64,000 nucleotides of DNA from Botryllus schlosseri (taxonomy: Eukaryota), in NCBI GenBank assembly GCA_051294905.1, contig CM119372.1, positions 28,646,001-28,710,000 of the forward strand, given 5' to 3'. Positions 2,731-31,589 of the stretch are shown here, one piece after another. Both the position numbers and the translations under genes were made by a program. The notes under the pieces are model-generated. The model was not told the DNA's origin, made no database searches, and worked only from the letters and a program-made list of their open reading frames with translations. Each line of letters starts with the position of its first letter. Position 1 is the stretch's first letter.

Positions 2731-3592
2731 ACATAGTTGGTATTGATTCTATAGGTGTGAAAATAGCGGTGCGGACTGTGTGAATAATCCGATGCGGCTG
2801 AATGTTGGCGTAATATTCAGGTTACGTTCGATTCAACAGATCGCGTTAAAAGGATTTCTCAAAGGATTAGAGTGGTACCGAATTGAAACATTCAGATACG
2901 AATCAACTTGAGCGGTGTAGTGAGTTTCATTTCAAGTCGACAAATTAACACATTGATTGAATATTCTCATGATTCTTATCACGCAACTAAAGTCAACCAC
3001 TGTTCTGAAGTGTCAAAACATATAGCGACCACCAGAAAGTGTCAAGTTGTTGGTTTTCGAATTATCGTCTGCGACGGTTCTGCGACAAACTAATTACCGA
3101 AATATTACCTTGTGAGCGATCGGCATGCCTGTAACACAGGGGCGGGCAACTTCTACGGTCGGCGGGCCTGATTGGGGAAAATGAAGTACTTGGCGAGCCA
3201 GAATACAAAATCGATACAATAATCGCGTAATTATCCACCTATACCAGGGGCGGGCAACTTCTCCAGTCGGCGGGCCGGATATAGGAAAATTGAGTACTTG
3301 GCGGGCCGGATCGCTGAATCGATACATTATTCGCCCATTTATCCAAATATACAAGGAATAAATCGTATATAATGAATGTATTTTAACGACAGCCATGTAA
3401 CTTCAAAGCGATTTCTCGCCAATAATGACGAAGACAATGTGGATTTGAGAACAGCATTGTCATACAGGCACCACCATGTCTGCTTATCTCTGACCAATCA
3501 ACACACGGTGCAATCCTTAATTAAGATTTCAAGGCGTTCGATAAGCCCAGTACCCCAAATTTACCGAGACATCAATTCATTAGGGTTTAGTA

Positions 3593-4456: not shown

Positions 4457-5054
4457 GTCTAGTATGTGACGAGATAGCGTGGTTGTTCAACTGTGTGGCC
4501 TATTTTATCCCGCCCACGGCCTTTACGGAATTTGACAGTGGCCCGCGACCCGTTTTGAGTTGGCAACCCCTGGTATAAGCGGTGTGTTACAAAAGCCAGG
4601 AAGTGTTCCATGAGTAGTTAGAGAAATGTGCGGAAGGTGCCCATTCGCGATTTATAAAGAACAAACAAACATTATCAAGATAATAAACAGTGTAAGAATT
4701 AGCTCATTCTCAGTTTTGCAGCAATACTCGAGGGGAATTCCCTTCTGACTGTGCGGCAATAGGGGGGACTGAGAGAAAACGAACAAAGAATCTGGATTGA
4801 CCTTTGTACTGGAGTCATTCTACTTGTACTTTTCCACTCCTTACCTCGCTTGATCTCTGGACACGAGACTTGTGTATTGAGTATTTATTATATTTTCCCT
4901 CGAATAACAATGGATCGGCTTTTAATTTCAATGGTATGCACGCCGACGATACGCTCGGCTGGGCAAAGCGACGTCCACAGCCTGTGTCATACTGGACTCG
5001 TAACAACCTCGCTCGACCTCTGGTCAAGGACATGAAATTACAGCTGACTCCGGT

Positions 5055-5400
5055 CATACGCGACGGGGCTTGGTAATAGTTGCCTGACGACATATCGTCC
5101 TGACCTATCGTTTTGTGGTCCAATTTCGTGACGTGTCTTGGGAATAATTCCCCGTCAAACCCCCTGGCTGACTTGTCGTCCCGTGGTTGACTCGATTTCA
5201 TGTACGGTGGGGCATGGGAATAATTGCCGGTGCTGACTTCGGTCGTGTACGACGGGGCTTGACCATAGTTGCCGGCCCTGACCTGTCATTCCGTGGTCCA
5301 ATTTCGTGGCTCGGGAACAATAGAGCGTCAAGCTGGTTGACTTGTCGTTCCGCGATTGATTCAATTTCGTGTACGGTGGGTCATAATTACCGGTCGTGAC
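5055..5400 (+). repeat. Subterminal degenerate tandem repeat (~60-65 bp units) of the Polinton-like termini
   Basis: Recurring (A)ATTTCGTG, GGGGCTTGG.AATA.TTGCC and GACTTGTCGT motifs; shorter version in the inner element at ~9425-9600; mirrored at both right ends. Confidence 0.7.
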
Positions 5401-6077
5401 GTCAGTATAGTTTCTTCTGATCCATGAGATCCTGGTGCGTGTTTTAGGTGTCCATACGTTCGGCTATGTAAAGTGACGCTTGTGGTCTGTGTCTTGTGTA
5501 CTGTTGTACTTGAACCCTTTTTTACTTTGTTATCGACCCAGACAGTAACGAGAAACGATCTGTTACGATTATAAATATGTATACCATTTCGAGTCATATC
5601 GAGAATGAGAATGAATGTCGTAGTAGAAATGTGTATTAGGCGACCCGACATAGATTAACTTAAATAAATTAGCATTATAAATACAATAAGTAATTGAGCA
5701 AATAGCTGATTCTCAATTTTGCTCGCATCAACATGTTAACCCCTGGTATTACGTACCTAGTAATCGGCGCAAGCAACAAATGTGGCTGTTCCATACCTAT
5801 ACCTCGTTCTAGCGTATTCATAAGGACAGACAGTCCCGAGTAAAACAATGTATTTATGATGGGTTCTTTTTACTGCTTCACGGTTGGTCAAGCGTAATCA
5901 TCCCGGTGTCTGCAAATGATATTCAATTTACCACGGGATATTAATTTTGTATGCTGTACATGATATACAACTTGAATCGAACTGTTGGCGAACTAATGCT
6001 TTGCCCGTCTGTAACATACACATATCGATCACGAGCTCACCACGCACTTGCAGTTCGAGGGCGACTCATTTCGCTGC

Positions 6078-6730
6078 AGACAATCAGTTGTGTTCGCGTG
6101 TATCGTAACATATCCTCAACACTTGTTATGGCAACACCTCCACGCATATTTACAATATCATACTAAGGAACTATTGCTTCGGCAGCCACGCCCTATCGCT
6201 CGAAGTCGACAAATTTCGCTACAGACAGTCAGTTGTGTTCACGTATGTGTCGTAAATATATCCTCAACACATGCTATGCCAATACCTCCAAGCATATTTG
6301 CATCATACTTAGGGTTCTGGTTTAAATCAGGCTGATTTAAATCATCACGTGTCGACAATCGATCGAAGCCCGTCAACTGGTATTTTGAAAGCTCCCGGTA
6401 TGGTGTATTATTGTGTATGGATTGTTGCGGTATTAGAATTGTGGTTACGGCTCGTTGGCGGTGCGAGGATCAGGTTTATAGTATACTATAACTACTTAGC
6501 TCGGATATTATACGACGCGCTGCTATCGGTGCTTTGTCCAAGACCTAATTCACGATAATCAATCTCGCTGTCGAAAATGACATGCGGCCGCGTAGACTGC
6601 ATAGCGCCATTTTGTTTTGTGATCCATCCTGCTGTGCCGAGGATCGAAACATATCCTCAACACATGTTATGCCAACACCTCCAAGCATATTTGCAGCATC
6701 ATACTACGGATATATTGACTCGGCAGAGTG
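6078..6730 (+). repeat. ~144-bp degenerate tandem repeat within the arms
   Basis: Unit ACAATCAGTTGTGTTCGCGTGT..CGTAACATATCCTCAACAC..GTTATGCCAACACCTCC..GCATATTT at ~6080, ~6224, ~6648 (partial); also ~10237, ~10381, ~12440, ~12565 and all mirror positions. Confidence 0.8.
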
Positions 6731-7950
6731 TTACCGTCAGAGAATTGCTGTGTCACGCCTTCGGGCCTTGTATTTTCCGCTCGGTAACTGCGAGTATGAT
6801 GTTATTTCAATTGTCCGCGAAACGAATCGGGGTAGCTCGCTTCATCGGGGCGGACTGACCTTATCTGGCTGAAACGCGCTCGGTGGTGCAATAATGGGAA
6901 TGAATTGTGACAGATCATACCTGATACGATCTATAGCCTGAGGTGAGGTGTAAAGTAGAGGGGGAGATTTCGAAATCGGAATACACTGCGACTATAGGGT
7001 TGCTAAATCAAAGTCCAAAAAATCCGGCTGGCTCGTAAAGTCCTGTTATTTCCATATGTTGTGAGGGTAAAATATAGCATAAATCCGACTCTCAGGGCCA
7101 TTTGGCCGCATCCAGACTGGCTTCGCTGAAAACTGATGAAATCTGCCCCGGGTCCGGAGATGTTTCGTGACCTCCTCCGTCCAGACAAGATTGTTCTGCT
7201 GTAATATAGGTGTCGTTGTATAATAATTTACGTACAAGGAGACTTGGTATCGACCAGACATGGGGTAATCGTGATTAGTAATCGTAATCGATTACGACGA
7301 TTACAGCATTTCCAAGTAATCGTAATCGCAATCGATTACATTCGACAAAATCCCGAAGTAAGCGTAATCGTAATCGACTACTTCCCATATTTAATCGATT
7401 TCTCTGTGAAAGAACGATTACTTTTTTATTTTTGCAAGTTATATGACATAAAGGTCATAAACTGTACATTCGTGAACAAGGAAGAGATATTATACCAGGC
7501 TCGTGACAGCACAAACGTCTGATTTTCAAACGCCACAGCTCATTATTACGTCAGAAGCAGCCTATTAGCTTTGCGCATCATTGCGTAAGAAGTATCCACG
7601 CTAAATAGATATTCGATGTACATACGTCGCACATTATAGTGTCATTGTATGAACAACTGTCGTGCTATATATCAGGTTATCAACACGTTCCACACGCCAC
7701 CACCTCGCAGCAGGATAATTTATCTCCGCCCTGCCTAGTTTAAAATATAGTAACTTATGGTTGATGTTCGGTTATGCTTATGCTCAGTTAGACGCAATTT
7801 GACGGTAGCTGCTTGGCGAGCAGTAGGCCTATCTAGTACGTACGTCGTACGTACATCAAGATTTGAAATTTTGTACTCGTCAAATAAAACATTGCGATTT
7901 CCACAACGAAGCAGTCAAGATCAACAGCTGGTGATATATATATATATATA

Positions 7951-7982
7951 CAGGGATATCTAGAAACTTCTAGATATCCCTG
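7951..7982. repeat. 32-bp perfect hairpin in a TA microsatellite
   Basis: CAGGGATATCTAGAA-AC-TTCTAGATATCCCTG flanked by TA on both sides. Confidence 0.85.
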
Positions 7983-8324
7983 TACATATATATAAATACC
8001 GCGCCGTTTCTCGTAACGGCAGCTTGAGGTACAATATCTGTATTAAGTTGAAGGCAGAATTGTGTGTTCGCTTCGTCTTATTCTCGTATGACTCTCCTTG
8101 AAACGGGCGCCAATCTTTACTCAACATTGGGACCTGCCGCCATAGTCATGGGCCTAAATATCATGTTAGCATGGGCTGTAGCTGGAATTAGGACTAAAAC
8201 AGCAGTTCGTCCCCCATATGGTGGTAATCGGAGGTTGAAGACTGAATTACGTCAATAATTACATTGTATTACTATTGATTTTTAATCCTCTATCAGCTCC
8301 CGATGGTCAGATTCACCTGTAAGA

Positions 8325-8600
8325 GTTAGTTTGTTTGAGGTAATCTTGGTGTTTGTCCACTACAACGGTCAGTTACACCAGGCCGATTTTCTTCATTTTT
8401 GATTCCGTATCTGCCGACTTGTAGCACGGCCCACTTCTAGGCTTATTGTAAGACACCGCTTACGCGGATGAGTCGGCGAGGAGGAGCCTAGATAAACCTC
8501 CAACACTTAGAAAGGATTTCTGAAGTCGACCTCGGTCGGACTCGAGCCGGCATACAATGGCGTTGCAGCCGTGGATTATACCACTGCGCTATCTCGCCAC
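8325..8600 (-). mobile_element. tRNA-derived SINE, near full length
   Basis: Reverse complement shows GTGGCGAGATAGCGCAGTGG (A box) and GGCTCGAGTCC (B box), shared body and AAAC-type tail. Confidence 0.85.
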
Positions 8601-9128
8601 AGAATTAGGCTATCTACATGTAGAGCTGGGACACGTAATTCATAACCTCTGTTATCTTGTTATAATTACTTTAGTTTATGTTGTTAATTCGTGACCTCCG
8701 ATTTGTTATATAATCAAACGATATTGTAGTGGCTCAAGCGTAGCAGACTAGAAAATAAACTGTCGTGAGACGCACAGACAAATTGTCATGTCTTTATATC
8801 TGACTGCATGTCTAGCAACTCAAGTTGTTAATTAACAGGGTCAGTGGCCACATTAACTACAAAAGGACTTGAAAACATTTTCATCATGGGGAAAAAGCAT
8901 TCATTCCGTCAATGCGGCCGTTGAACTTGACAATCAAGTCAAATGATTCAATGGTTTGATGGTCAGATAGCTTTGTAAAACGTGTTGCAACACCACCTGC
9001 ACTTAATTAAGTCTAATGATGAGCAGACTTAAATTTGAGTGACGATCCAAACGCATTTGAGTGTGAGCATACTTTTTGACGTGAGTTGAGTAACGAAATC
9101 GTTGCTGAGTAGAGAATCGCTACTCGAC

Positions 9129-12100
9129 AGTAGTATATAGTTTGGGCGATCGACGCCCATTCGCGATTTATAATAAACAAACAAAGATTATCAATATAAT
9201 AATTAATTAAAGAATTACCTCATTCTCAGTTTTGCAGCAATACTCAAGGGGAATTCCCTTCTGACTGTGCGGCAATTAAAAAAGGGGGATTGACGCTAGA
9301 GAGAAAACGAACAAAGAATCTCGATTGACCTTTGGAACTTTGGTTAGACATGAGACTTGAGTACTTCTACTTGTACTTTTCCACTCGCCTCCAGATTTAC
9401 CTCGCTTGACCTCTGGACACGAGACCTGGGCTTGGTAATAGTTGCCTCCCGACAAATCGCCCTGGCCTATCGTTTTGTGGTCCAATTTCGTGACGGGGCT
9501 TTGGGAATAATTGCCTATCAAACCACCCTGGTTGACTTGTCGTTTCGCGATTGACTCGATTTCGTGGGGGCATAGGAATAATTGCCGGTCGTGACGTCAA
9601 TAAAGTTTTCTCCTGGTCGGTGAGATCCTGGTGCGTGTTTTAGGTGTCTATACGTTCGGCTGTGCATAGTGACGCATGTAGTCTGTTCCATACTGTCGTA
9701 CTTGCTCTTGCTTTGTTGTCGACTTAAATAGTAAGGAGAATTGATCTGTTCTGGATATAAATATGTGTGTCATTTTGAGTCATATCGAGAACCAGAATGT
9801 CGTGTATTAGAAATAGGTATTAGGCGCCCCCGACATAGATTAACTTGAATAAAGTACCATTTAGAATATAATAAGTAATTAAAGAAATAGCTCATTCTCA
9901 ATTTGACTCGCATCAACGTGTTAATTTCCGATATTGTAGTAATTGGTGCAAGCAAAAACTGCTGTTCCACACCTTTACCGCTTTCTAGCGTATTAGAACA
10001 GACAGTCCCAACCAAACAATGTGATGGGTTCTTTTACTGCTTCACGTCTGGTCAAGCGTAATCATGCCGGTGTCTGTAAATGATGTGTAATTTCCCGCGG
10101 TATATTATTTTTGTATGCTGTACATGATGTACAACTTCAATCGATCAGTTGTCGAACTAATACTTTACCGGTATGTACGATCGATCACGAGCTCACCACG
10201 CACTTGTCGTTCGAGGGCGACTCATTTCGCTATAGGCAATCAGTTGTGTTCGCGTGTACCGTAATATATCCTCAACACTTGTTATGCCAACACCTCCAAG
10301 CATATTTACAATATCATGCTAAGGAACTATTGCTTCGGCAGCCACGCACTGTCGTTCGAATTCGACTAATTTCGCTGTAGACAATCAGTTGTGCTCGTGT
10401 GTGTCGTAACATATCCTCATCAACACATGTTATGCCAACACCGCCGAGCATATTTGCAGCATCATACTACGGATATATTGAACCGGCGAAGTATTACCGT
10501 CAGAGAATTGCTGCGCCACACCTTCGAGCCTCGCTTTCCCGCTCGGTAACTGCGAGTACGATGTCAGATTCAATTGTCCAGTGACGAATCGGGGTAGCTC
10601 GCTTCTTCGGGGTGGACAGACCTTATTTGGCTGAAACGCGCTCGGTGGTGCAATAATGGGAATGAATTGTGACAGATCATACCTGATACGATCTATAGCC
10701 TGATGTGAGGCGTAAAGTAGAGTGGGAGATTTCGAAATCGGAATCCACTGCGACTATAGGATTGCAAAATCAAAGTCCAAAAAATCCGACTGGCCCGTAA
10801 AGTCCTGGTATTTCCATGTATTAGGCTGGTAAAATGTAACATAAATCCAACTCTCAAAGACACTTGGCCGCATCCAGTCCGGGTTTAACCAAAACTGATG
10901 AAATCTGCGCCGGGTCCGGAAACGAATCGTGACCACCCCCGTCCAGACAAAATAGTTCTGCTGTAAGGGGAGTGTCGTTGTACATTAATTTGCGTACAGC
11001 GAGACTTTGTATCGACTCATTGACGGACTTCTGTTTGTATCGCGTTTGGCTTAGAATCCCAATTCTATATAGTGCGGCCCGCGAATGGATTCAAATGTTG
11101 AATGCGGCCCGCGAGCTCAAAACTTTGCCCACCCCTGATGTATATTGTACCACTTGAATCGATCTGTTGGCGAACTAATGCTTTGCCCGTCTGTAACATA
11201 CACATATCGATCACGAGCTCACCACGCACTTGCCGTTCGAGAGCGACTGATTTCGCTATAGACAATCAGTTCAGTGTTGCCAATTTAGCGATTTTCGCGC
11301 TAGATCTAGCGATTTTTGAAAAGGTATTTAGCGATTATTTAGCGCTTTTTACCGAAAATAACTAATAAAGATCGGTTCTGGCCGACGACTATGGCGACTC
11401 ATCTGCCACCAGAGTGCGGACTCCAATGATATGTAATGAAATTAATGATGGATTACTAACGTACGGATAGATACGCAACTCCTGGCGGTTACGCATGGGC
11501 AAACAGTGTCTCTTCTTGCTGTGTAATCTAAAAGTAGCATAATTGACAGTGCTACATCTGGCGACCTGAGCGCTGCAATTTAATATGATTGGCCTTGATC
11601 GAAAGCTAGTGTCGCAGTGATTTCGAAGATACAAAATGAAATCTCGTCAGGACAATGGAACCATGCACCCCGAAACAGCCCTCGGAGTCTGAAAACCAGC
11701 ATTGCTTCAATAATGGCACCGCCGCAACACAATGGACATAACAATGACCAATTTCGTCCAGCGATTGTTCTGATCAATGTCGATTTTCAGACTCTTGGGG
11801 CTACTTTGAAGTCGTTGCATTGTCTTTACAAGAATTTAATTCGTATTGTCGGAATCAGTGTGACACTGGCGTTTAGGACCAGATTCATTAAATTTCTTAC
11901 TCCGGGTTGGTCCTCTACTTTTAGTGGCTGGCAAACCCGGTTCAAGTCGTGTTGTATCGGGTCAAGTCGCATGTTGCGTACAAGTGTGTCAAGTCGCATG
12001 TCGTGTTCAAGTACTCCAACTCAGTTTCGAGAAGTCAAGCGCATTTCCACGGTACATCGCATCACTATTCACGGACGCATGGAGCAAGGCACGCTTATAG

Positions 12101-15100
12101 AGTGAGCGGTTATGCCTGCAAACCTGGTCAGTGGTCACGTATAGCGATCATTGCGCAAAGCGATCCGCTCTACCGAAACGCACTGCACGTTTTGTTCCGC
12201 TTAGAGATGAATATTACGTATTATGAACTAGAAATATGATAAGTGACTTTGGCCCCCAGGCGAGTAAAATACAGCTGAGAAGAGTGTATTGATATTATGG
12301 TTCAATTTAACACGTTTAGCAATTAATGTAGATCTAGCGCTATTTTGTAGCGCTTTTTTCTCAATATTTAGCAACATCTAGCGATTTTTGACACCAGTTT
12401 TAGCGATTTTCTTCCATCCGGAGTTGGCAACACTGAATCAGTTGTGTTCGCGTGTACCGTAACGTATCCTCAACACTTGTTATGCCAACACCAATATCAT
12501 ACTAAGGATATATTGCTTCGGCAGCCACGCACTGTCGTTCGAATTCGACTAATTTCGCTGCTGACAATCAGTTGTGCTCACGCGTGCCGTAAAATATCCT
12601 CAACAAATGTTATGTCATATTTGCAGCATCATACTATGGACGTATTGACTCGGCGGAGTGTTACCGTGAGAGAAATGCTGTTTGAGCCCCTCGTCCTAGC
12701 CTTGGATTTACCGTTTCGAAAAATTCCACCAGAAGAAGCTGTGATCGAGTGTCACAATCAATGTCAGCCACGCTCCATCAACCTGTTGTTTTGACAAAAC
12801 CAGTACGTATACGCCGGAGATGAGCATTGATTAGGATTTAGAAAAAACGTATTTGTGAAATTTTTCTGGATTAGGTTGAATTGAGTTTTGAGATTGATTT
12901 ACCATATCGTACGGGCAACTACTACCGAGACCCGTCGTGACGAAATCGGATTAATCAGTCATGGAACGACAAGTTAGGGCTAACCGCTGATATTCCTAGT
13001 TTATTCTTGAAAGCTCTATAGATTACTGGTTAGCTGTATGTTGTGGGCGATTGACAACAGTTAGTTGTCGCTGTTATACAATTTACACTTTGTGTTATAC
13101 ATTCCTTGTTACCACCGCGAACTAGGAGGTCAATCACGACGACGGGCAACTACTCCCAATTGGCGGAATACTGTTTGATTCATCTGTATAATCAGGTTTA
13201 GCACCACAAGAAGAATATAAGTAGTTTATGATTGAATGAAATCTATCAATCAAACAACGATAATAACTATATAGATCTCGTTCGTATTACTATGAGAGCT
13301 AATCGATCACGTCCACACAATATTATTACGTAGCATTCATTTGGTGGGGATGTTGTTGTTAGTATTGTAACATGGTGATCGGCTACTATGACCTTTACAC
13401 CAGTTCTAAAAGGGTAAGGAATTGGTTAGTGTTACAGCTGTCTGACGGTGGGGTATTCGACAAAATTGATATGTTTTACTACGGAAGCTATGATCACACG
13501 GACGGGCTCTCATCACTTATCGTACGAATGCTTGTAATCTCGATGTAGTGTGATGCACACGAATCAGCTGTGATCAGTCGAGTGTGACACGATCGAAGTC
13601 ACTATTTACTGTTTGAAATAACTCGTATATTCCGTTCAAGAAATGTCCCTCATTTGTCCAAATATCCTCCTTTTTGTCAAATTGTCTTCCTTTTTTCATC
13701 TTAAAATATCTAAAAAGACTACGAATGGCACTAAATGATGACCTAGTTTACGAGAGATGGGTATTTCGGGAGTCAAGTCAGGGGACAAAATGAGCTTTTT
13801 TAGTCAACACCATGAAATTTGATGTATAAACATACAAATCATTCGTCCGCTATAGTAACTTTTTGCAGCTCGTGGAAAGTGTCCTCCTTTCGGGGCTTAT
13901 GGTAACCCTATATTTTACCAGCTTTTAGTCTCGGACTTGAACATCGAAGTTTGCACATAATTTCACATTACATTCCCTATGACAAGCATAGGCTATTACG
14001 GTTATGGGACCTGTGCTCTCAAACATGTATTGATGAATAGCGAAAGCGACCACAAGCTTTCATTACATGAAAAAAAACGAGCTCACTAGCCCGTCCATGT
14101 TGGCATGTACACACCAATGGCCATGTCCATGATCTGAAGTTTGCACATAATTTCACATTGCATTCCCATGACTTAGCACAGACTATTACGTGGGTATGGA
14201 GGCTGTGCTTTTCAAACATGTATCGAGGAATACCGAAAGCGACTCAAGCTACCATTACACGAAAAATCGAGCACACTCGTTCCTCCCTCTCGGGGTATAC
14301 CCACCTTCGTTTCGTACAGACAAATGTTTCCATGTTGCAGCGACAATAGCGGGGAGGGTGGTAGATCATTATCACAATCAGTACCTTGGGATGAGTGTGA
14401 AATCGACATCGTCCGTTAAGCGACTGAAGCTAGTCGCCACTACAATCACTCTCTGCGTAGTGCGTAAACGCGACGTACAAAGCGCTGCTGGGTATACGAA
14501 ACTACGGATTCTAGCCAAAGCGAGGTTATCGAGATAGCTGTAGCGATTCACAGCACATGCTAAATCTCCTTGAAATGGGAGTACAAAATGTATCGCTTTG
14601 AAATACTCAAGTAGAAGTAGTTGTTAAAGAGTAATTCGCACCGTAAAATTGCAACTGTTTTGGAGTGCTAATGTCACACAATTGCTATATTGATCACTCG
14701 CTTATGTGTAGAAAGCAGAAATTGACCCCTGGGTTGTACGATCTCGTGGCCTTGACAAACGTTCTATAGTTCAAAAGTCACTGTCATGTTGGGCTTTGAT
14801 TGCTGTTGTACTCTTGTTAGCGTCGATATTCATTGGTACGTGTTTTCATGGTCTAAAATGTTGGTTATTATAGAGTGTTTTCGTAAAAGGTTGGGAGCCA
14901 CTGATTTAGGCCTTGATGGGTTCAACCAAATACACGTGTAACACATCCTATTCCTGGGCCGTAACCGATCCTTTACCACACCTTCTATACGATAAACGTC
15001 CTTTTTATCCAGAGGTAAGCCGACGACATACGGGAAATGCAGGCGCTGACGTGCTATTTTGTTATTCTCTCCGCGTAACATGAAAGAAGGTATTGAGGTA

Positions 15101-15344
15101 CCCTCCCAAGGTCACTGCGAGCGTAAGTTAAGTCAATCTCTGTGTATGTAGTGTTAATGTCGCACCGTCGCAATAATGATCACTTATGTGTAGAAAGCAG
15201 AAATTTACGACTCGATTACTTGTACGAGCTTGTAGCTTTGGTAAGCTTGCTGAAGCGGAAAGCCACTCAAGTTGGACATTAAATTGATTGGTGTTCGTTC
15301 TCTTGTTAATAGTCGTTGGTACGTGCTTTCGTGCTTTAAAATTT
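9129..15344 (+). repeat. Inner element left inverted arm (~6.2 kb)
   Basis: Near-perfect reverse complement of 17020-23241; only two substitutions (near 14472 and 14584) and a 6-bp indel near 15308 noticed by eye. Confidence 0.95.
11272..12435. mobile_element. Non-autonomous hAT-type element inside inner left arm
   Basis: TIR CAGTGTTGCCAA / TTGGCAACACTG, 8-bp TSD AATCAGTT (11264-11271, 12436-12443), subterminal TTTAGCGA repeats. Confidence 0.9.
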
Positions 15345-17019
15345 TCAACGAATTTTAAAGATAAATAAAGAAACAGCTGATTCACACTTTTGCAAGCAAT
15401 ACTTCCGGGTATCCCGCTGTGCGGTAATGAAAAGAGGAGATTTAGGTCATAGCGAAATAGAATAAACTTCAAAAAATGGGGTTGATAAATTTTGTAAAGT
15501 ACCATAAGACATACTCAACATCAACTAATGAATTAGATATGATGTCTTGATGTCATGTGACTATAAAATCGGTTACACATTGTAACACATCGGTATCAGA
15601 CAATAACTTACACAAGCTTAAATGTGTGTTAATTTGCTTTGTAATGTGAGTTAGTGGGCATGGGGATGATTATTTCATCAATTGAATCGATTGCGATTAC
15701 GATTACTGCTGAATCATCCGACTATAATTACGGTTACAGAAAAATCCCACAAGTAGTCGAAACGTAATCACCAAGGTGCTAATTTGTTATCTCTCCTCCG
15801 TCATATGTCACCGGGTATAGGCATTGATACAATGCAGTATTGAATGCGATCCTAATAAGAATTGATACTATGCAGTGTTGACCGTGATACGTGAGGACCC
15901 CTGCTGTATGCTAATATGTCTTTTTACAAAAGTTATCACTCGTAACCCCCCACAGTGTGCGAGTTATCAACAAATCGCAGACACACTACTTCGCATAGGG
16001 GAGAATAATAACCCTCCACTCTGCTTAGTTTCAAATGGCAAAGCAATTATTGACGTTTCTTGTGTGTTAAACACATTTGGAACGCTGCTCCTTGGCCAGT
16101 AGTACGAACAGCGGACATCTATTTGAAGTTTTACACTCATCAAATAATAGATGACAAATTTCCACATCAAAGCAATAAAATCATCGGGTACCAAAATAAA
16201 TCATAACCGAGCCTGGTGGTAACGACAGCTCGCGGACTTGTATGAATTATCCAACTAATTGGTTGACGGTCAGCCATCTGCGGTTTTATGTAGTTATAGT
16301 TGCGGAGTTAAAAAAGTCAGTTGCTCGAGTTCTAGTTGCGCATTCTAGAACTGATTTCGCTGTGAAACTCGAACTGTAGAATAAAACATGTGTCGCGGTT
16401 TGACGTAAATCATGATACCGATGTTCTGTTATGTGATGTGCTTGCGGCCGTTGTTAGCTCACAGTCAGCGATACTAACAGTGGCTTAGGAAGGGTTTCAA
16501 CCACTTCAAATTCAAAGACCTATCCTTTCAAAATACCGATTCTATGTCTAATACTTCTTAGCTCATTTCCAAATCATCATTAATTCGTATTATCGGAAAT
16601 CATAGTCAGTTGTACAGCCTAGTTTATATTGCTACTTCATTTATGTACCCTCTTCATTACTACACACTAGGTGGCGGAAACGAGTAAAAATATTTATTTA
16701 AACGTATAGCACGCAGTGGGGGTACTTGTCGATCGCGTTGAACACTGTATTGTCGGGTACCACAGCCCAATGTCTACCTACCCTGTCATGTGACGTCGAA
16801 ATAATAACGAAATGGCACGTTAGTACTGCGTCTTCACAGATCATCGTGCTACGTATGAGTAAAAGCTACGTTTACGATATAGAAGGTGTGGTAAAAGATC
16901 GGTTTCGGCCCGGGGTAGGATGTGTTACACTGTTACACGCGTATTTTGTTGAACACATCAAGGTCTAAATAAGTTGTTCCTGCCTATTTATGACCATCCT
17001 TCGATGATAACAATAACAT

Positions 17020-20000
17020 AAATTTTAAAGCACGAAAGCACGTACCAACGACTATCAACGCTAACAAGAGAACGAACACCAATCAATTTAATGTCCAACT
17101 TGAGTGGCTTTCCGCTTCAGCAAGCTTACCAAAGCTACAAGCTCGTACAAGTAATCGAGTCGTAAATTTCTGCTTTCTACACATAAGTGATCATTATTGC
17201 GACGGTGCGACATTAACACTACATACACAGAGATTGACTTAACTTACGCTCGCAGTGACCTTGGGAGGGTACCTCAATACCTTCTTTCATGTTACGCGGA
17301 GAGAATAACAAAATAGCACGTCAGCGCCTGCATTTCCCGTATGTCGTCGGCTTACCTCTGGATAAAAAGGACGTTTATCGTATAGAAGGTGTGGTAAAGG
17401 ATCGGTTACGGCCCAGGAATAGGATGTGTTACACGTGTATTTGGTTGAACCCATCAAGGCCTAAATCAGTGGCTCCCAACCTTTTACGAAAACACTCTAT
17501 AATAACCAACATTTTAGACCATGAAAACACGTACCAATGAATATCGACGCTAACAAGAGTACAACAGCAATCAAAGCCCAACATGACAGTGACTTTTGAA
17601 CTATAGAACGTTTGTCAAGGCCACGAGATCGTACAACCCAGGGGTCAATTTCTGCTTTCTACACATAAGCGAGTGATCAATATAGCAATTGTGTGACATT
17701 AGCACTCCAAAACAGTTGCAATTTTACGGTGCGAATTACTCTTTAACAACTACTTCTACTTGAGTATTTCAAAGCGATACATTTTTTACTCCCATTTCAA
17801 GGAGATTTAGCATGTGCTGTGAATCGCTACAGCTATCTCGATAACCTCGCTTTGGCTAGAATCCGTAGTTTCGTATACCCAGCAGCGCTTTGTACGTTGC
17901 GTTTACGCACTACGCAGAGAGTGATTGTAGTGGCGACTAGCTTCAGTCGCTTAACGGACGATGTCGATTTCACACTCATCCCAAGGTACTGATTGTGATA
18001 ATGATCTACCACCCTCCCCGCTATTGTCGCTGCAACATGGAAACATTTGTCTGTACGAAACGAAGGTGGGTATACCCCGAGAGGGAGGAACGAGTGTGCT
18101 CGATTTTTCGTGTAATGGTAGCTTGAGTCGCTTTCGGTATTCCTCGATACATGTTTGAAAAGCACAGCCTCCATACCCACGTAATAGTCTGTGCTAAGTC
18201 ATGGGAATGCAATGTGAAATTATGTGCAAACTTCAGATCATGGACATGGCCATTGGTGTGTACATGCCAACATGGACGGGCTAGTGAGCTCGTTTTTTTT
18301 CATGTAATGAAAGCTTGTGGTCGCTTTCGCTATTCATCAATACATGTTTGAGAGCACAGGTCCCATAACCGTAATAGCCTATGCTTGTCATAGGGAATGT
18401 AATGTGAAATTATGTGCAAACTTCGATGTTCAAGTCCGAGACTAAAAGCTGGTAAAATATAGGGTTACCATAAGCCCCGAAAGGAGGACACTTTCCACGA
18501 GCTGCAAAAAGTTACTATAGCGGACGAATGATTTGTATGTTTATACATCAAATTTCATGGTGTTGACTAAAAAAGCTCATTTTGTCCCCTGACTTGACTC
18601 CCGAAATACCCATCTCTCGTAAACTAGGTCATCATTTAGTGCCATTCGTAGTCTTTTTAGATATTTTAAGATGAAAAAAGGAAGACAATTTGACAAAAAG
18701 GAGGATATTTGGACAAATGAGGGACATTTCTTGAACGGAATATACGAGTTATTTCAAACAGTAAATAGTGACTTCGATCGTGTCACACTCGACTGATCAC
18801 AGCTGATTCGTGTGCATCACACTACATCGAGATTACAAGCATTCGTACGATAAGTGATGAGAGCCCGTCCGTGTGATCATAGCTTCCGTAGTAAAACATA
18901 TCAATTTTGTCGAATACCCCACCGTCAGACAGCTGTAACACTAACCAATTCCTTACCCTTTTAGAACTGGTGTAAAGGTCATAGTAGCCGATCACCATGT
19001 TACAATACTAACAACAACATCCCCACCAAATGAATGCTACGTAATAATATTGTGTGGACGTGATCGATTAGCTCTCATAGTAATACGAACGAGATCTATA
19101 TAGTTATTATCGTTGTTTGATTGATAGATTTCATTCAATCATAAACTACTTATATTCTTCTTGTGGTGCTAAACCTGATTATACAGATGAATCAAACAGT
19201 ATTCCGCCAATTGGGAGTAGTTGCCCGTCGTCGTGATTGACCTCCTAGTTCGCGGTGGTAACAAGGAATGTATAACACAAAGTGTAAATTGTATAACAGC
19301 GACAACTAACTGTTGTCAATCGCCCACAACATACAGCTAACCAGTAATCTATAGAGCTTTCAAGAATAAACTAGGAATATCAGCGGTTAGCCCTAACTTG
19401 TCGTTCCATGACTGATTAATCCGATTTCGTCACGACGGGTCTCGGTAGTAGTTGCCCGTACGATATGGTAAATCAATCTCAAAACTCAATTCAACCTAAT
19501 CCAGAAAAATTTCACAAATACGTTTTTTCTAAATCCTAATCAATGCTCATCTCCGGCGTATACGTACTGGTTTTGTCAAAACAACAGGTTGATGGAGCGT
19601 GGCTGACATTGATTGTGACACTCGATCACAGCTTCTTCTGGTGGAATTTTTCGAAACGGTAAATCCAAGGCTAGGACGAGGGGCTCAAACAGCATTTCTC
19701 TCACGGTAACACTCCGCCGAGTCAATACGTCCATAGTATGATGCTGCAAATATGACATAACATTTGTTGAGGATATTTTACGGCACGCGTGAGCACAACT
19801 GATTGTCAGCAGCGAAATTAGTCGAATTCGAACGACAGTGCGTGGCTGCCGAAGCAATATATCCTTAGTATGATATTGGTGTTGGCATAACAAGTGTTGA
19901 GGATACGTTACGGTACACGCGAACACAACTGATTCAGTGTTGCCAACTCCGGATGGAAGAAAATCGCTAAAACTGGTGTCAAAAATCGCTAGATGTTGCT

Positions 20001-23000
20001 AAATATTGAGAAAAAAGCGCTACAAAATAGCGCTAGATCTACATTAATTGCTAAACGTGTTAAATTGAACCATAATATCAATACACTCTTCTCAGCTGTA
20101 TTTTACTCGCCTGGGGGCCAAAGTCACTTATCATATTTCTAGTTCATAATACGTAATATTCATCTCTAAGCGGAACAAAACGTGCAGTGCGTTTCGGTAG
20201 AGCGGATCGCTTTGCGCAATGATCGCTATACGTGACCACTGACCAGGTTTGCAGGCATAACCGCTCACTCTATAAGCGTGCCTTGCTCCATGCGTCCGTG
20301 AATAGTGATGCGATGTACCGTGGAAATGCGCTTGACTTCTCGAAACTGAGTTGGAGTACTTGAACACGACATGCGACTTGACACACTTGTACGCAACATG
20401 CGACTTGACCCGATACAACACGACTTGAACCGGGTTTGCCAGCCACTAAAAGTAGAGGACCAACCCGGAGTAAGAAATTTAATGAATCTGGTCCTAAACG
20501 CCAGTGTCACACTGATTCCGACAATACGAATTAAATTCTTGTAAAGACAATGCAACGACTTCAAAGTAGCCCCAAGAGTCTGAAAATCGACATTGATCAG
20601 AACAATCGCTGGACGAAATTGGTCATTGTTATGTCCATTGTGTTGCGGCGGTGCCATTATTGAAGCAATGCTGGTTTTCAGACTCCGAGGGCTGTTTCGG
20701 GGTGCATGGTTCCATTGTCCTGACGAGATTTCATTTTGTATCTTCGAAATCACTGCGACACTAGCTTTCGATCAAGGCCAATCATATTAAATTGCAGCGC
20801 TCAGGTCGCCAGATGTAGCACTGTCAATTATGCTACTTTTAGATTACACAGCAAGAAGAGACACTGTTTGCCCATGCGTAACCGCCAGGAGTTGCGTATC
20901 TATCCGTACGTTAGTAATCCATCATTAATTTCATTACATATCATTGGAGTCCGCACTCTGGTGGCAGATGAGTCGCCATAGTCGTCGGCCAGAACCGATC
21001 TTTATTAGTTATTTTCGGTAAAAAGCGCTAAATAATCGCTAAATACCTTTTCAAAAATCGCTAGATCTAGCGCGAAAATCGCTAAATTGGCAACACTGAA
21101 CTGATTGTCTATAGCGAAATCAGTCGCTCTCGAACGGCAAGTGCGTGGTGAGCTCGTGATCGATATGTGTATGTTACAGACGGGCAAAGCATTAGTTCGC
21201 CAACAGATCGATTCAAGTGGTACAATATACATCAGGGGTGGGCAAAGTTTTGAGCTCGCGGGCCGCATTCAACATTTGAATCCATTCGCGGGCCGCACTA
21301 TATAGAATTGGGATTCTAAGCCAAACGCGATACAAACAGAAGTCCGTCAATGAGTCGATACAAAGTCTCGCTGTACGCAAATTAATGTACAACGACACTC
21401 CCCTTACAGCAGAACTATTTTGTCTGGACGGGGGTGGTCACGATTCGTTTCCGGACCCGGCGCAGATTTCATCAGTTTTGGTTAAACCCGGACTGGATGC
21501 GGCCAAGTGTCTTTGAGAGTTGGATTTATGTTACATTTTACCAGCCTAATACATGGAAATACCAGGACTTTACGGGCCAGTCGGATTTTTTGGACTTTGA
21601 TTTTGCAATCCTATAGTCGCAGTGGATTCCGATTTCGAAATCTCCCACTCTACTTTACGCCTCACATCAGGCTATAGATCGTATCAGGTATGATCTGTCA
21701 CAATTCATTCCCATTATTGCACCACCGAGCGCGTTTCAGCCAAATAAGGTCTGTCCACCCCGAAGAAGCGAGCTACCCCGATTCGTCACTGGACAATTGA
21801 ATCTGACATCGTACTCGCAGTTACCGAGCGGGAAAGCGAGGCTCGAAGGTGTGGCGCAGCAATTCTCTGACGGTAATACTTCGCCGGTTCAATATATCCG
21901 TAGTATGATGCTGCAAATATGCTCGGCGGTGTTGGCATAACATGTGTTGATGAGGATATGTTACGACACACACGAGCACAACTGATTGTCTACAGCGAAA
22001 TTAGTCGAATTCGAACGACAGTGCGTGGCTGCCGAAGCAATAGTTCCTTAGCATGATATTGTAAATATGCTTGGAGGTGTTGGCATAACAAGTGTTGAGG
22101 ATATATTACGGTACACGCGAACACAACTGATTGCCTATAGCGAAATGAGTCGCCCTCGAACGACAAGTGCGTGGTGAGCTCGTGATCGATCGTACATACC
22201 GGTAAAGTATTAGTTCGACAACTGATCGATTGAAGTTGTACATCATGTACAGCATACAAAAATAATATACCGCGGGAAATTACACATCATTTACAGACAC
22301 CGGCATGATTACGCTTGACCAGACGTGAAGCAGTAAAAGAACCCATCACATTGTTTGGTTGGGACTGTCTGTTCTAATACGCTAGAAAGCGGTAAAGGTG
22401 TGGAACAGCAGTTTTTGCTTGCACCAATTACTACAATATCGGAAATTAACACGTTGATGCGAGTCAAATTGAGAATGAGCTATTTCTTTAATTACTTATT
22501 ATATTCTAAATGGTACTTTATTCAAGTTAATCTATGTCGGGGGCGCCTAATACCTATTTCTAATACACGACATTCTGGTTCTCGATATGACTCAAAATGA
22601 CACACATATTTATATCCAGAACAGATCAATTCTCCTTACTATTTAAGTCGACAACAAAGCAAGAGCAAGTACGACAGTATGGAACAGACTACATGCGTCA
22701 CTATGCACAGCCGAACGTATAGACACCTAAAACACGCACCAGGATCTCACCGACCAGGAGAAAACTTTATTGACGTCACGACCGGCAATTATTCCTATGC
22801 CCCCACGAAATCGAGTCAATCGCGAAACGACAAGTCAACCAGGGTGGTTTGATAGGCAATTATTCCCAAAGCCCCGTCACGAAATTGGACCACAAAACGA
22901 TAGGCCAGGGCGATTTGTCGGGAGGCAACTATTACCAAGCCCAGGTCTCGTGTCCAGAGGTCAAGCGAGGTAAATCTGGAGGCGAGTGGAAAAGTACAAG

Positions 23001-23241
23001 TAGAAGTACTCAAGTCTCATGTCTAACCAAAGTTCCAAAGGTCAATCGAGATTCTTTGTTCGTTTTCTCTCTAGCGTCAATCCCCCTTTTTTAATTGCCG
23101 CACAGTCAGAAGGGAATTCCCCTTGAGTATTGCTGCAAAACTGAGAATGAGGTAATTCTTTAATTAATTATTATATTGATAATCTTTGTTTGTTTATTAT
23201 AAATCGCGAATGGGCGTCGATCGCCCAAACTATATACTACT
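17020..23241 (-). repeat. Inner element right inverted arm (~6.2 kb)
   Basis: Mirror of 9129-15344 (e.g. 14830..15081- vs 17289..17540+ give identical translations). Confidence 0.95.
19935..21098. mobile_element. Mirror copy of the 11272-12435 hAT-type element in inner right arm
   Basis: Same element at the same site with TSD AACTGATT; ORF translations identical to the left copy. Confidence 0.9.
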
Positions 23242-23934
23242 CTCGACAGCAAAGGAATTGGTCTCCACCCTTAATTATTAACTCCAGATTCCAAGCCAAG
23301 CAAGTGTAATTTTTGAAAATCAATTTTTTTTGTTTGTTCTAAATTGATTTTATAATGTTTTTGTTGGGTTTTCCAACGTCAATGGGAGCCGCAAGTAGGC
23401 TAGCTCGTAGCTGCTTGTGGCTCTCAGAGCCGCGGTTGGGAATCACTGATCTAGAGAGGATTTTCAAACTAATTAGATCTCTCAAAAATACTCTATAACT
23501 TATGTTGGTTTACGAAATACTTTTTGAGCCCCCTTCGAGCTCGCTCCCCACCATATTGGGAAATTTGGGGTGCGGTAATTAGGCCCCTGGCAAGAATGCA
23601 AATCATTGAGTGCGATAAATTGACCCCTAAAAAATAGGCAATGGGTACATTATGACGTAACAAGCAAATGACGCATCTCTTTTACAGGGAGTTTGTTATC
23701 TCATTAGGCCTCTTCAGCGCAATCCATATATTGTCTTCCAACATAGCTTCGAAGATGCAAAATAAATGTAATCGTGAGTAATCGTGATTACTTTTCCAAT
23801 GTAATCGTAATCGTAATCGACTACTTCCTGATGTTGCTGTAATCGTAATCGTAATCGTAATCGCGTCATTCATAAGTAATCGTAATCGCAATCGATTACA
23901 ATCATAAACTAATCACCCCATGTCTGGTATCGAC

Positions 23935-26900
23935 CCTTTGGCGGAATTCTGTTTGGTTCGTCTGTACAGGTGTTATTAGTGCGACCAGATTTGGCACCTC
24001 GAGGAGGATATTGGTAAAAACCGTATCACACAACGAGGACAATAACTTTACCGGTCAACAATGTACGTAAATCAGCTGTGTTCAATCGAGCGTGACACAA
24101 TCGATGTCAGCCATCAATCTGCGGCTTGATAAAACCCGCGTTTTCGGGTTGACAGCAACACAATGCGATCCATTCGATATCACTATCGACCCTCCTATTT
24201 TAATATAGGGTTACCATGAGGCCTCCTTTAGGGGAGCATATGTCCTCCATTTCCCAGATATGTCACCCAATTCACCCAAATGTACTCTCTTTCTGTCAGT
24301 TTGTCCTCCTTGTTAGCTCAACATCTCCAAAAAAGCACCACGAGTAACGCAAAATGTGGGCCTAGATTACAAAAGTCGGGTACGTGGCCAAATCGGAAAA
24401 ATGACGCTATGATGGTATTGTGCAGGCTATTACGTGGATACGGGGGCCTGTGTAAACATGTGAATAGTAAAAGCGCTCCAAACTACCGTGAAAAAAGATC
24501 GAGCGCATTAGACCATGTCGGGGCCACCTTAGTACAGTCAAATGATCCCATGTCGTATCGAGAATAGCCGGGGCGGTGGTGGTACATCATTCTCACAAGA
24601 TGTACTTTGGAATGCGTGTGAAATCGTCTTCGTCCGCTACTCGACTAAAGCAGAATATAGCTTTGAAGTACTCAAGTAGCTTTAAAGGAAATGTCGTGAA
24701 ATCGCTTTCTATCCTAATGATAAAGAGTAGGCCCCCCATAAATCTATCGAGCCAAAATGTAGTTTCAAAGCAATCCAGTAATTTGTAAATCTTACGGGTT
24801 GAACGGTGTGTTCATTGACTAGAGAGAAGGAGACACGACGGTGCCTGTATAACAAGGCTGTTCTCAAACCGACATTGTCTTCGTTATTATCGGCGAGATA
24901 TGGCTTTGCAGTGACATTGCGGTCGGTAAAATACATTGATTAAATACGATTTATCCCTCGTATATGGGGATCAATGGGCGAATAATGTATCGATTCAGCA
25001 ATTCGGCATGCCAAGTACTTAATTTTCTCCGGCCCGCCGACCGAAGGAGTTGCCCGCCCCCCTTGTATAACACATATGTAGATGATACAATAGCGACAGC
25101 TAGCGGTTGTCAATCATCCATAAAAATACTAACCAGTAATACAGCCCTCAAGGAAAACAACAATCCGGGGAGATACGTCAAGTGTATTTCAGATACATCG
25201 TCTGTAGACCTCCAATTGCGGAGAACACTGGAGCAGCTGAAGCACTGTGTTCTGTCTAGGTCACCGAGATAAAGCTTGTTTTGCCAACTCGCCGACCGTC
25301 CGTGGTATGGGATAGCTGGGTCATTTCTCAAAGGTTCAGTACTCTCCGTATTTTGAGGTTATTGCACAATCTATCTCTAATATGCTGTAATATAGACAGG
25401 TCCAGACTTGTCTATTCACTTCCGTAGACTGACCTTTATAACACATTTTACACAATTAAATACACATGTTCAGTTTATTTGAAGTAATAACGGGCAAGCA
25501 CATTAACTAATCGTCCAGAACAAGGTGTAGAGCTTCTTTCAGATCTTGGCATACTTTCTTGATATCAGAATCTTTTTTTTGATTTGCGATGTAAAAGCAA
25601 TACCAGCTTCGCATACATGAGCATATGATTGCGTATAAACCGATATTGAAGTCTTCTGAGAGCATCTTCATTATTCTCCAGTCTACACAATATTATTTTC
25701 CTCTTAGTACGTTATGTCTCTCAATCCAACAGAACAGTTGAATTGCTATTCGAAGGTATCTGATACAGACAACTGTAAACTAATTCTTTAAGTTTGTTCA
25801 TCGTAGCGTAACGACCATTTTTACGAATCCATAACTGTATCATTTGATATCGTTGCTCAGTTAAGGTATAGCAATCCATGTATTGGCATTCGGCAATTTC
25901 ATTGTCAGATAGCTCAAGTTTTTCACGTGCAAACCTATACCAGTTCATCGGGTCAATCCGATCCATTATGACGTATATATCACTAGCAGTAATCTTGGAC
26001 ATATTCGATCTATAGTGTACAGCGAATAATCATGTAATAAATATTACACGTTATATATTGCCTTGCACTCGGTTCAACTACAATAACAAATAAGGCGATC
26101 AACTTACGCAATAATGACGTAATCATATCTCAGCGTTACTGAAACCAAGCAAAGCCGCTCTCGTAATAACTAGAGTAATCAACTATACGCAATCATAATG
26201 ACGTAATCATTACTGCACATGCTTGAACTGCAATACGCAATCATAATGAAGAATATATACGTATATATCAATTTCTGCAACTTTTTAATTTTGCTCGCAC
26301 TGTACACGATTTCATGTAGATAAATGTTTTGATTATTAGGCACCCTTCCTTCACAAAAAATACGCATCATTTATGAGAGTAGGAATCTAAGCGTTGGCCA
26401 TTACCACGCCAAGAGGTAAGAAGACATATGAAGTTTGGGCCATCATGGGCCTCATAGAAGAGTGCCAAAAAGATCGTCAGCGAGAAAACATGGGTCGAAA
26501 AGGATTGCCCTTATGTTGACCGTAAACTTCGATATAAATGTATTTGTATGGGTGTCTAAAGTGCTGGCACCGAATAATTATGTCGTGGTAATCTGGACCC
26601 CACAGGGCAACTGACATCCCACCCCGAATTATTATTTAACAGTGAAGAAATACCAATTTTGAATCGTGCGCTTCTTTTAGTTTAGTAGTCTGTGTATAGG
26701 CGAGTTCAATATCTTTTGATTACATACCGCACATGGGAAGTCGGACTGAGAGGATACAAAATTTATAGCAATATACACGCAATTATCAATATTATTGACC
26801 TAATCAATCATTAATTATACAGTCATTTCACCAGGTCCACGTGGTCGCATCTGAATGGAGACCGGATAGGTCAAAAGTGCTACATTCGGTCAAAGTGGCG

Positions 26901-27592
26901 AACATACCGCCTGGTTATCAAGTGTTTTTATGTATGATCGACCCCCACTGTCTAGCGAGACGAGCAGGATTTTGGTGTCTGATTATTAATGTCGTAAGAG
27001 TGTGGTAAATCCATTTACAAACTACTTTACACATTTCAAAATCCCAACACCCGAAAAGTAAGTAGCTAAAACGGTTGAAGCGGAGGTAGTCTGAAACACA
27101 ACGACTCATATAGCACAGATGGACAAATCCTAATCGAGTACATCGGATAGAGTTGCATCCTTGAAATCGTTATTTCCTCAACAAATCGATACAAGAATGG
27201 ATCTGCATGGGAATAAACATGAATATGTTCTGATGACACTCGTTATGGAAAGCTAAATTCGCCTGCCCCACATCCCCAACAGAACATATTGACAATTAAT
27301 ATCAGCCATATACTACAGAAATACCCATTTACTCGAATGGTACCATGTCTGAAATACTGTAGTGTAGGCGAATCAGCGTCTACTGATCCTGACAGTCACC
27401 GTTTAAACAGGTTTTTGCCGGGTCAACTGTGATCGGACACGGTTCATCCGCTACTTGCAGACTTATACGCGCGGGGGGTTGAAAAAAAAATGGCTCGGAT
27501 GCTATGTCAGCTCAGGGCGACAATTCGAAGTTTTAAACGATACGGTTGGTACGTAAAGCCTCGTTATTCCCGCGTATTGTGAGGGTAAAACC
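23935..27592 (+). repeat. Outer element left inverted arm, part 2
   Basis: Reverse complement of 29718-33374 (ORF 24964..25272+ mirrors 32038..32346-; 26918..27109- mirrors 30201..30392+). Match ends at GAGGGTAAAACC / GGTTTTACCCTC. Confidence 0.95.
25721..26002 (-). CDS. Death-domain-only protein (93 aa)
   Basis: ATG-initiated ORF with the death-domain pattern W..FAR..L.LSDNEI...L.EQ.YQM...W..KNG..AT...L...; TATA box ~50 bp upstream. Confidence 0.8.
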   Translation of the reverse strand: MSKITASDIYVIMDRIDPMNWYRFAREKLELSDNEIAECQYMDCYTLTEQRYQMIQLWIRKNGRYATMNKLKELVYSCLYQIPSNSNSTVLLD

Positions 27593-28234
27593 GATGCTAA
27601 AATAAGTCGTCGGAAGGGTATACCGAAAGCCTCTTTGCACTGCGGGTGAACTTATCGCATAGCATTTCACAGCTCTGCGGCGTAATTTAACTGTCTAGCG
27701 CTGTGGACGGTCCATTTTGTCTGCTAATTGGGGGCCATAAACGACCGAGTGAAACAAATAGTTTGGGGTATATGCGGATATGATTAGGAAACAACACGCT
27801 GAATGACTTGGGAATCTCAACTCGACAAAGGATCGTCGCGACGGGGGACCTGCAAAAACGTCCCAGACACCCTGAATCCCGCTAATGTAGGCGCTGACAG
27901 AGCATAATTTTCCCTGCTACGGGTGTAATCTAGATAAAGCATGATTTTTTCCTATATGTCTGTAATCTATATAAAGCATAGTGCTCCCTAGATACCAGGC
28001 GTGGGGGATCACGAATCACCAAGTGTTTTTATACATTGAGAAATGATCGAGCTATTTTTATACCCGAGGTAGTCATTCAGAGACATGCAGGCTTATTCGT
28101 ATAGACTCTCTATAGTGTAGCATCTATCTGATTCGGGGATAAGTAAATGCTTTGTCCACGCTCAAACTGAGGATGCTTTGAATTTGTATCTTACTCATGT
28201 TATTATTCACCCTCCAGGAAATATTTATAGTACG

Positions 28235-28741
28235 ATGGAGTCTAATAAATGCCGTATTTGTGCGCGGGAATTCACAAGAAAATGCAACCTCAAAAGTCAT
28301 TTACTATGGCACACTGGTGTTAAAGAACATGAATGCTTGATATGCGGACGATGGTTTCTTGCCAAACAGAACCTACATGCCCATTTGGCTGTACACTCGG
28401 GGGTGAAACCGTACGATTGTGAAGTATGTGGTCGTTTTTTTGCCCGAAAATACACCATGGAAGTTCATTTGGCCACACATACTGGCGTAGAAAGATTCGA
28501 GTGTGGGGTGTGTGGTAAGCTTCTGTCGGGGAAGAATGGGCTGAAAAAACACCTAGAAACACACTTTGGAATTGGAAAATACTCGTGTCAGGTGTGTGGG
28601 AGACTGTTTCCTCACCAATGCGGGTTAGAAACTCACCTCCAGGCTCCCGTGGGACTGAGAAAATATCCATGCGGTGTTTGCGGTAAAGCTTTTGGTTCGC
28701 AAGCAAATCTTCACAGACACGAGACTACTCCCTTTGTGTGA
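28235..28741 (+). CDS. Tandem C2H2 (Kruppel-type) zinc-finger protein, 168 aa from first ATG
   Basis: Six CxxC units with TGVKEHE/SGVKPYD/TGVERFE linkers; fingers 1-4 have both His, fingers 5-6 lack the last His. A pyrimidine-rich CCCTCCAG at ~28210-28217 suggests an upstream intron, so the true start could lie in another exon. Confidence 0.9.
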   Translation: MESNKCRICAREFTRKCNLKSHLLWHTGVKEHECLICGRWFLAKQNLHAHLAVHSGVKPYDCEVCGRFFARKYTMEVHLATHTGVERFECGVCGKLLSGKNGLKKHLETHFGIGKYSCQVCGRLFPHQCGLETHLQAPVGLRKYPCGVCGKAFGSQANLHRHETTPFV

Positions 28742-28769
28742 GCCGATCGTATTTCAATATGAGTGTACC

Positions 28770-28812
28770 AATAAATATTTTTTTCGCGTCTGTATAATTC
28801 TGTGTTGTTTGT
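28770..28812 (+). terminator. Polyadenylation signal of the zinc-finger gene
   Basis: AATAAA at 28770-28775, ~30 bp after the stop, followed by T- and GT-rich downstream sequence (TGTGTTGTTTGT). Confidence 0.6.
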
Positions 28813-31060: not shown

Positions 31061-31260
31061 TCATTATGATTGCGTATTGCAGTTCAAGCATGTGCAGTAA
31101 TGATTACGTCATTATGATTGCGTATAGTTGATTACTCTAGTTATTACGAGAGCGGCTTTGCTTGGTTTCAGTAACGCTGAGATATGATTACGTCATTATT
31201 GCGTAAGTTGATCGCCTTATTTGTTATTGTAGTTGAACCGAGTGCAAGGCAATATATAAC
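31061..31260 (+). promoter_or_regulatory. Putative promoter of the death-domain gene (mirror at ~26050-26249 on minus strand)
   Basis: TGATTACGTCATTAT twice (31101-31115, 31185-31199), ATTGCGTA three times, TATATAA at 31253-31259, ATG at 31308. Confidence 0.5.
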
Positions 31261-31307
31261 GTGTAATATTTATTACATGATTATTCGCTGTACACTATAG
31301 ATCGAAT

Positions 31308-31589
31308 ATGTCCAAGATTACTGCTAGTGATATATACGTCATAATGGATCGGATTGACCCGATGAACTAGTATAGGTTTGCACGTGAAAAACTTGAGCTA
31401 TCTGACAATGAAATTGCCGAATGCCAATACATGGATTGCTATACCTTAACTGAGCAACGATATCAAATGATACAGTTATGGATTCGTAAAAATGGTCGTT
31501 ACGCTACGATGAACAAACTTAAAGAATTAGTTTACAGTTGTCTGTATCAGATACCTTCGAATAGCAATTCAACTGTTCTGTTGGATTGA
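31308..31589 (+). pseudogene. Mirror copy of death-domain gene with nonsense mutation W21*
   Basis: ATG at 31308; codon 21 (31368-31370) is TAG where the left-arm copy has TGG; otherwise matches. Confidence 0.85.

Follow-up and report, generated by a model that had tools for sequence, protein, structure and literature searches.

A 64,000-nucleotide stretch of the Botryllus schlosseri genome (assembly GCA_051294905.1, contig CM119372.1, positions 28,646,001 to 28,710,000 of the forward strand; the window, in whose own numbering all positions are given) contains two large palindromic elements with Maverick/Polinton-like ends, one nested inside the other. The copying of one arm of a palindrome from the other is strongly supported by the sequence, as it would explain both an insertion mirrored in the two arms and the point differences that the arms share. 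We further consider it fairly probable that the arms were recopied, probably more than once, and most likely during replication by a helper Maverick/Polinton for transposition.

The arms and their nesting were delimited by comparing the window with itself. The inner element (9129..23241, 14.1 kb) has the ends AGTAGT...ACTACT and is flanked by a 6-bp target duplication, CTCGAC (9123-9128 and 23242-23247). It is composed of a left arm (9129..15344, + strand), a spacer or loop of 1,675 bp (15345..17019) and a right arm (17020..23241, − strand), with arm sequence making up about 88% of its length; the left arm mismatches the right one solely at 14472 and 14584 and by a 6-bp gap at 15309. The outer relative (4613..36016) has the same ends, a 6-bp duplication, TCCATG, and 15 arm differences, and consists of a left arm in two parts (4613-7254 and 23927-27592), a 2,125-bp spacer (27593-29717) and a right arm (29718-36016). 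Arm length is 6.2-6.3 kb in both elements. A 16.7-kb insertion (7255..23926), namely a 2,553-bp hAT-like element hosting the inner element, with an 8-bp duplication, GTATCGAC, and the ends CAGACATGGGG, interrupts the outer left arm only, in agreement with the initial annotation of this DNA, and the outer right arm has the empty site. The flanks at 7255 varied in one public sequencing run (X2, described below). By nesting, the inner element arrived here no earlier than the outer one. The inner spacer contains fragments of the hAT-like family that hosts the inner element (15659-15737 and 16121-16183), a decayed copy of a sub-terminal arm piece (15362-15466, 70% identity), all of these lying within 15345-16183, and a continuation of the right arm's internal repeat.

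Both inner arms carry a 1,164-bp non-autonomous hAT-like element at the identical site, as had been annotated initially. The left-arm copy (11272..12435, + strand), with target duplications AATCAGTT at 11264-11271 and 12436-12443, is 100% identical to the mirror copy in the right arm (19935..21098, − strand), and the mirror symmetry is exact over the whole segment that includes the two AATCAGTT duplicates, 11264-12443 being the reverse complement of 19927-21106. The element has a perfect 12-bp terminal repeat, CAGTGTTGCCAA. Four sites in the inner left arm (10238, 10383, 11264/12436 and 12566) have the target 8-mer. A single one of them is occupied, the same in both inner arms, and at the homologous position of the outer element (34540) the 1,164-bp element is absent. 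Smaller fragments are mirrored as well. A fragment resembling the end of a MITE (miniature inverted-repeat transposable element; 11068..11136, + strand), at which no target duplication was seen, has an exact mirror at 21234-21302, and an old MITE fragment in the outer left arm (24700..25065) differs from its mirror (32245-32610) at 0/366 positions, versus 41/269 (15%) from a free copy at 3247-3520. The initial claim that such fragments are mirrored was borne out for both, with the second belonging to the outer element and not to the inner one. The 1,164-bp element itself contains an internal inverted repeat in a decayed state (11602-11873, 65%), possibly an older nested element.

Divergence is far lower within copies than between them. 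The inner arms differ from each other at 3/6,216 positions (0.05%) and the outer arms at 15/6,311 (0.24%). Over two blocks shared by the elements, the inner arms showed 0/1,004 and 0/613 differences and the outer arms 4/1,032 and 5/611, whereas any inner arm was 12-15% diverged from any outer arm, compared with 0-0.8% within a copy. In this one pair of copies, each left arm is closer to its own right arm than to the other left arm, and the initial annotation had named the reverse pattern as the outcome that would speak against copying. The inner arms have significantly fewer differences than the outer arms (P 0.004). Among the eight outer differences that were polarized (alignment score at least 60), five fell on the left arm and three on the right. 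Together, the lower divergence of the inner arms and the presence of outer differences on both arms fit a reset at insertion followed by drift.

Four public runs (X2, X15, X16 and X21) were then compared on the inner left arm and spacer, runs with small word shares being left out. From the raw Hi-C run, X21, no more than 14 partial reads aligned, all of them to a single short piece of the host insertion, and these were uninformative. Variant sites were taken from 40 of 92 rows; 26 of these sites lie in the arm, and at 25 of the 26, variant in X2, X15 and X16, the two window arms share one letter. The lone exception is 14472, where the right arm has the letter of the other runs. For nine sites an outgroup was available (the outer element or an internal repeat), and there the letter of the window is likely derived at seven and that of the other runs at two. 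Run X15 differs from the window at 10/1,724 spacer letters and 21/1,794 arm letters (0.6-1.2%). One contig of X16 (record 13) aligns to 14878-15344 in minus-strand orientation and has a gap of 6 letters. This gap appears to be the right-arm form, and the remaining 109 letters of the contig would be the right end of the spacer, because the variant at 16971 has equal depth. Read in this way, a relative with the same junction predates these differences. Without later copying, about 36 arm differences would be expected, and three were seen; copying therefore likely recurred after the palindrome had formed.

The same runs also gave depth figures. In X15 and X16, the depth of arm pieces was about threefold that of spacer pieces, a ratio that is not a copy number. 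Along 9417-15344, the contig depth in other runs drops several-fold from the outer arm end to the loop, and by depth the arm ends seem to be common to many more relatives than the inner arm is. In X15, the depth of the 1,164-bp element was about 21-23 thousand versus about 0.5-0.8 thousand on the spacer (about 30-40 times, a rough figure, as depth is not copy number), and the element is a member of an abundant free family. At 11522 and 11876, every covering contig of X15 and X16 has another letter than the one on which both window copies agree. No empty-site joint for the element was present among the 15 of 92 joints listed, and the same locus in another individual was not among the rows listed.

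The ends of both elements match the Maverick/Polinton motif, (AGT)2...(ACT)2 (PMC8097293), and both have the 6-bp target duplication of this class; the 14.1-kb length of the inner element also falls inside the reported range. The arms depart from the class in length, being 6.2-6.3 kb against about 50-1,500 bp: terminal repeats are given as 46-1,447 bp for vertebrate Mavericks (PMC8097293) and as 100-1,500 bp for Mavericks/Polintons (10.1101/2023.08.22.554363) in the portions available of these reports. Coding content was assessed by a Pfam scan of 76 stop-to-stop frames of at least 62 aa, which came from each element's spacer and one of its arms and from the host insertion and included one flanking frame, together with a read-through scan of 7 short arm stretches. 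No core Maverick family (polymerase B, integrase, ATPase, protease or capsid) was found in the 76 frames, which heavily broken remnants could escape, and the elements were therefore not filed as autonomous members of Maverick/Polinton; the lack of core families in the scanned frames further separates them from vertebrate Mavericks. The frames of the 1,164-bp element contained no Pfam transposase family, and its hAT label is our assumption, made from an 8-bp duplication and a short terminal repeat of CAG type.

Butterfly polintons come closest among published elements; as far as described in the accessible text of the report (10.1101/2025.02.07.637071), they have long terminal repeats (about 2 kb) that double the genes within, two of them core genes. 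That report also describes polintons that lack polB, carry transposon cargo and are mobile, as the elements here appear to be. Unlike the present elements, the butterfly polintons keep core genes and a large unique middle, and no cargo mirrored in both repeats is described in that text. Among the titles and abstract openings listed by literature searches in a collection lacking most subscription papers and Repbase, none dealt with giant palindromic Polinton derivatives or arm-mirrored insertions.

In the mechanism that we propose, the enzymes of a helper Maverick/Polinton would excise the element and replicate it from its ends. A single strand would fold into a stem of about 6 kb with a loop of 1.7-2.1 kb, and a template switch would follow, in which either a trimmed 3ʹ end is re-extended along the 5ʹ arm or the new strand snaps back on itself. 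One arm would thereby be rewritten from the other over a long tract of variable extent, and the product would insert with a 6-bp duplication, after which the arms would drift apart. A racket-like single strand copied by the element's own polymerase is the standing model for Polintons (PMC4196379, in the part available). The initial annotation had proposed that arms are regenerated from one another during mobilization, through panhandles as in adenovirus. Arm-to-arm copying is supported, its timing is only likely, and the adenovirus comparison serves as an analogy: panhandles have been invoked for homology restoration in adenovirus and PRD1, for which direct evidence is said to be lacking in the available portion of a 2025 paper (PMC11886824). 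In those viruses, as here, a linear element has its terminal repeats brought into agreement; unlike them, where the work was experimental and concerned free viral genomes with short repeats, the present case involves multi-kilobase arms with a 1.2-kb insertion and an intermediate that we infer.

Under such copying, a sequence captured in one arm would be doubled if that arm served as template, lost if it was the target, and one-sided until the next move. The earlier statement that anything captured in an arm is doubled was thus too strong, because copying from the empty arm would erase the capture, and the 16.7-kb insertion and the 15 outer differences are undoubled. The large insertion stayed one-armed, that is, it was not copied across in place. 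At the left edge of the outer spacer, 27593-27610 is a 100% inverted copy of 29282-29299 and 27610-27642 is a 97% inverted copy of 29186-29218; relative to the right side, the joins of these pieces (27593-27642) jump by about 415 and 63 bp. Such pieces are what template jumps during synthesis would be expected to leave.

Several points weigh against recopying during helper replication. Plain panhandle replication would leave the arms unequalized, and an extra template-switch step has to be assumed. No helper, polymerase or integrase was found among the 76 frames scanned with Pfam, and the end motif had 0 matches in viral and metagenome contig collections. The pattern seen in the Drosophila element Galileo arises without a polymerase, which makes protein priming unnecessary, and host repair could plausibly give it as well. 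The full comparison covers two copies only, and contigs in the other runs carry no phase information, lose rare variants and could be mixtures of copies. Further, the differences are not evenly spread: on the far side of the large insertion, 2,643 bp hold 11/15 of the outer ones, and the 873 bp adjoining the loop hold all three inner ones (P 0.014 and P 0.003, respectively, both post hoc). It is accordingly doubtful that the whole arm is regenerated with each move. The outer clustering suits in-place conversion near the loop, and the inner clustering suits a copying tract that ended before the loop. In both cases, the last tract probably fell short of the whole arm; the clusters of leftover differences suggest partial copying tracts, and arm divergence is at best a rough clock.

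The most serious alternative, which we regard as unlikely on balance, is that the arms were equalized by host repair in the chromosome, either by arm-to-arm gene conversion or by fold-back repair of a gap after excision, with no protein-primed replication. Conversion is effective elsewhere, as the arms of human Y palindromes are about 99.97% identical through it (PMC8600007), and in Galileo, a foldback-like, cut-and-paste element of the P superfamily, the terminal repeats of one copy are >99% identical, against a divergence of about 7% from one copy to another (PMC2775673), a high within-copy identity reached without a polymerase. The present elements resemble both, in having arms more alike within than between copies and arms >99% identical around a unique spacer, as in sex-chromosome palindromes (PMC8600007, PMC7023750). 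The outer differences are also sparse near the loop, with none in 25942-27592. Against this, the outer element retains its 15 differences and the one-armed 16.7-kb insertion, and divergence tracks the nesting order. In willow palindromes under gene conversion, 13 long terminal repeat insertions were absent from the opposite arm (PMC7023750), that is, insertions there stayed one-armed, whereas transfer here included a 1.2-kb insertion and entire internal duplications. For conversion at a fixed locus in particular, the uneven outer differences are favorable, and the unrepaired one-armed insertion and the nesting order are not. The settings differ too, since the palindromes of sex chromosomes are fixed chromosomal structures and the present ones are mobile elements with target duplications, and Galileo has a 7-bp duplication, repeats of about 600 bp and no Maverick motif, unlike the 6-bp duplications of both elements here. 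These comparisons hold for the portions of the cited papers that were available.

A single event would suffice for the mirrored insertion taken alone. Each palindrome could be the product of one copy-back of an end, made after the insertions were present and with no copying since, and the left arm indeed stops in the middle of an internal repeat that, on the right side, carries on into the spacer, the kind of trace expected of a single fold-back junction. This account is nevertheless improbable, as the relative that shares the spacer, and by the reading of X16 record 13 the same right junction, is 0.6-1.2% away and the window's own arms are 0.05% apart, with about 36 differences expected and three seen in these unphased contigs. 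Still less probable is an assembly artefact, in which the sequence of one arm was written twice and the identity and the doubled insertion are partly spurious. In its favor, the three inner differences adjoin the unique spacer, where read placement is easiest, and the reads were not attributed to the individual of the window; it is opposed by the exact 6-bp duplications of both elements, by the differences and one-armed insertion that the outer arms retain, by the presence of the right-arm form of the 6-bp gap in X2 and X16, and by the roughly threefold depth of arm over spacer pieces in X15 and X16. Two independent insertions of the 1,164-bp element, one per arm, would be helped by the abundance of its family and the recurrence of its target 8-mer within the arm, and have a negligible probability given the choice of the same one of four sites, the mirror orientation, the 0/1,164 differences and the letters at 11522 and 11876, common to both window copies and absent from the X15 and X16 contigs, which are incompatible with separate arrivals.

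The arms also carry coding sequence. A death-domain reading frame in the outer left arm (25721..26002, − strand) is open over 93 codons, and its mirror in the outer right arm (31308-31589, + strand) has an in-frame stop at codon 21, which is one of the 15 outer arm differences; the right-arm copy was the one scanned (PF00531, E 5e-08). Following this frame in both outer arms is a remnant of a BIR (IAP) domain (31952..32197, + strand, with its mirror at 25113-25358; PF00653, E 3.8e-06), with identical upstream stops in the two arms. IAP homologues have been reported in adintoviruses (PMC8502044, in the part available), and the IAP-type cargo here is a point of likeness to them. By this analogy, the death-domain and BIR frames may be inherited viral accessories, not host captures. 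The outer spacer contains an uninterrupted C2H2 zinc-finger frame (28235..28741, + strand, 168 aa), which is present as a single copy and is followed by an AATAAA signal; a similarity search returned generic C2H2 relatives only (the ten best at 35-40% identity), with no clue to its origin. Doubling is thus seen for the contents of the arms but is conditional on capture in the template arm and recopying. Pfam matches to TPR_17, RRM_Nup35 and Condensin2nSMC were below the cut-off and were treated as chance.

Two further observations concern the wider sequence. The inner-arm segment 11148-11278 has 93% identity to the outer element and only 81% to its own in-arm repeat (10116-10250), and these identities hint at module exchange between family members. 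Elsewhere in the window, a 799-aa open frame (60484-62883, + strand) encodes a P-element-type transposase (PF12017, PF21787-PF21789).

That Polintons replicate by way of a folded single strand has been a model from their first description onward, and what this locus adds is evidence of copying that recurred after palindrome formation. Long arms whose insertions can be dated preserve a record of the template strand, of the extent of copying and of its occasion, on the move or in place; as such a record, they make the folded-strand model testable by comparing copies. Recopying would account for cargo genes that come in pairs and would determine when the divergence of the arms is usable as an insertion clock. 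As a more tentative possibility, which we hold to be less likely than recopying as such, these elements might be satellite replicons of animal Mavericks, whose content is one arm plus the loop and whose second arm is rebuilt by snap-back at nearly every transposition. If so, the genome would hold hundreds of fossil records of the racket intermediate of Polintons, and the element would have a built-in capacity to double, and also to erase, captured genes, the IAP and death-domain frames among them.

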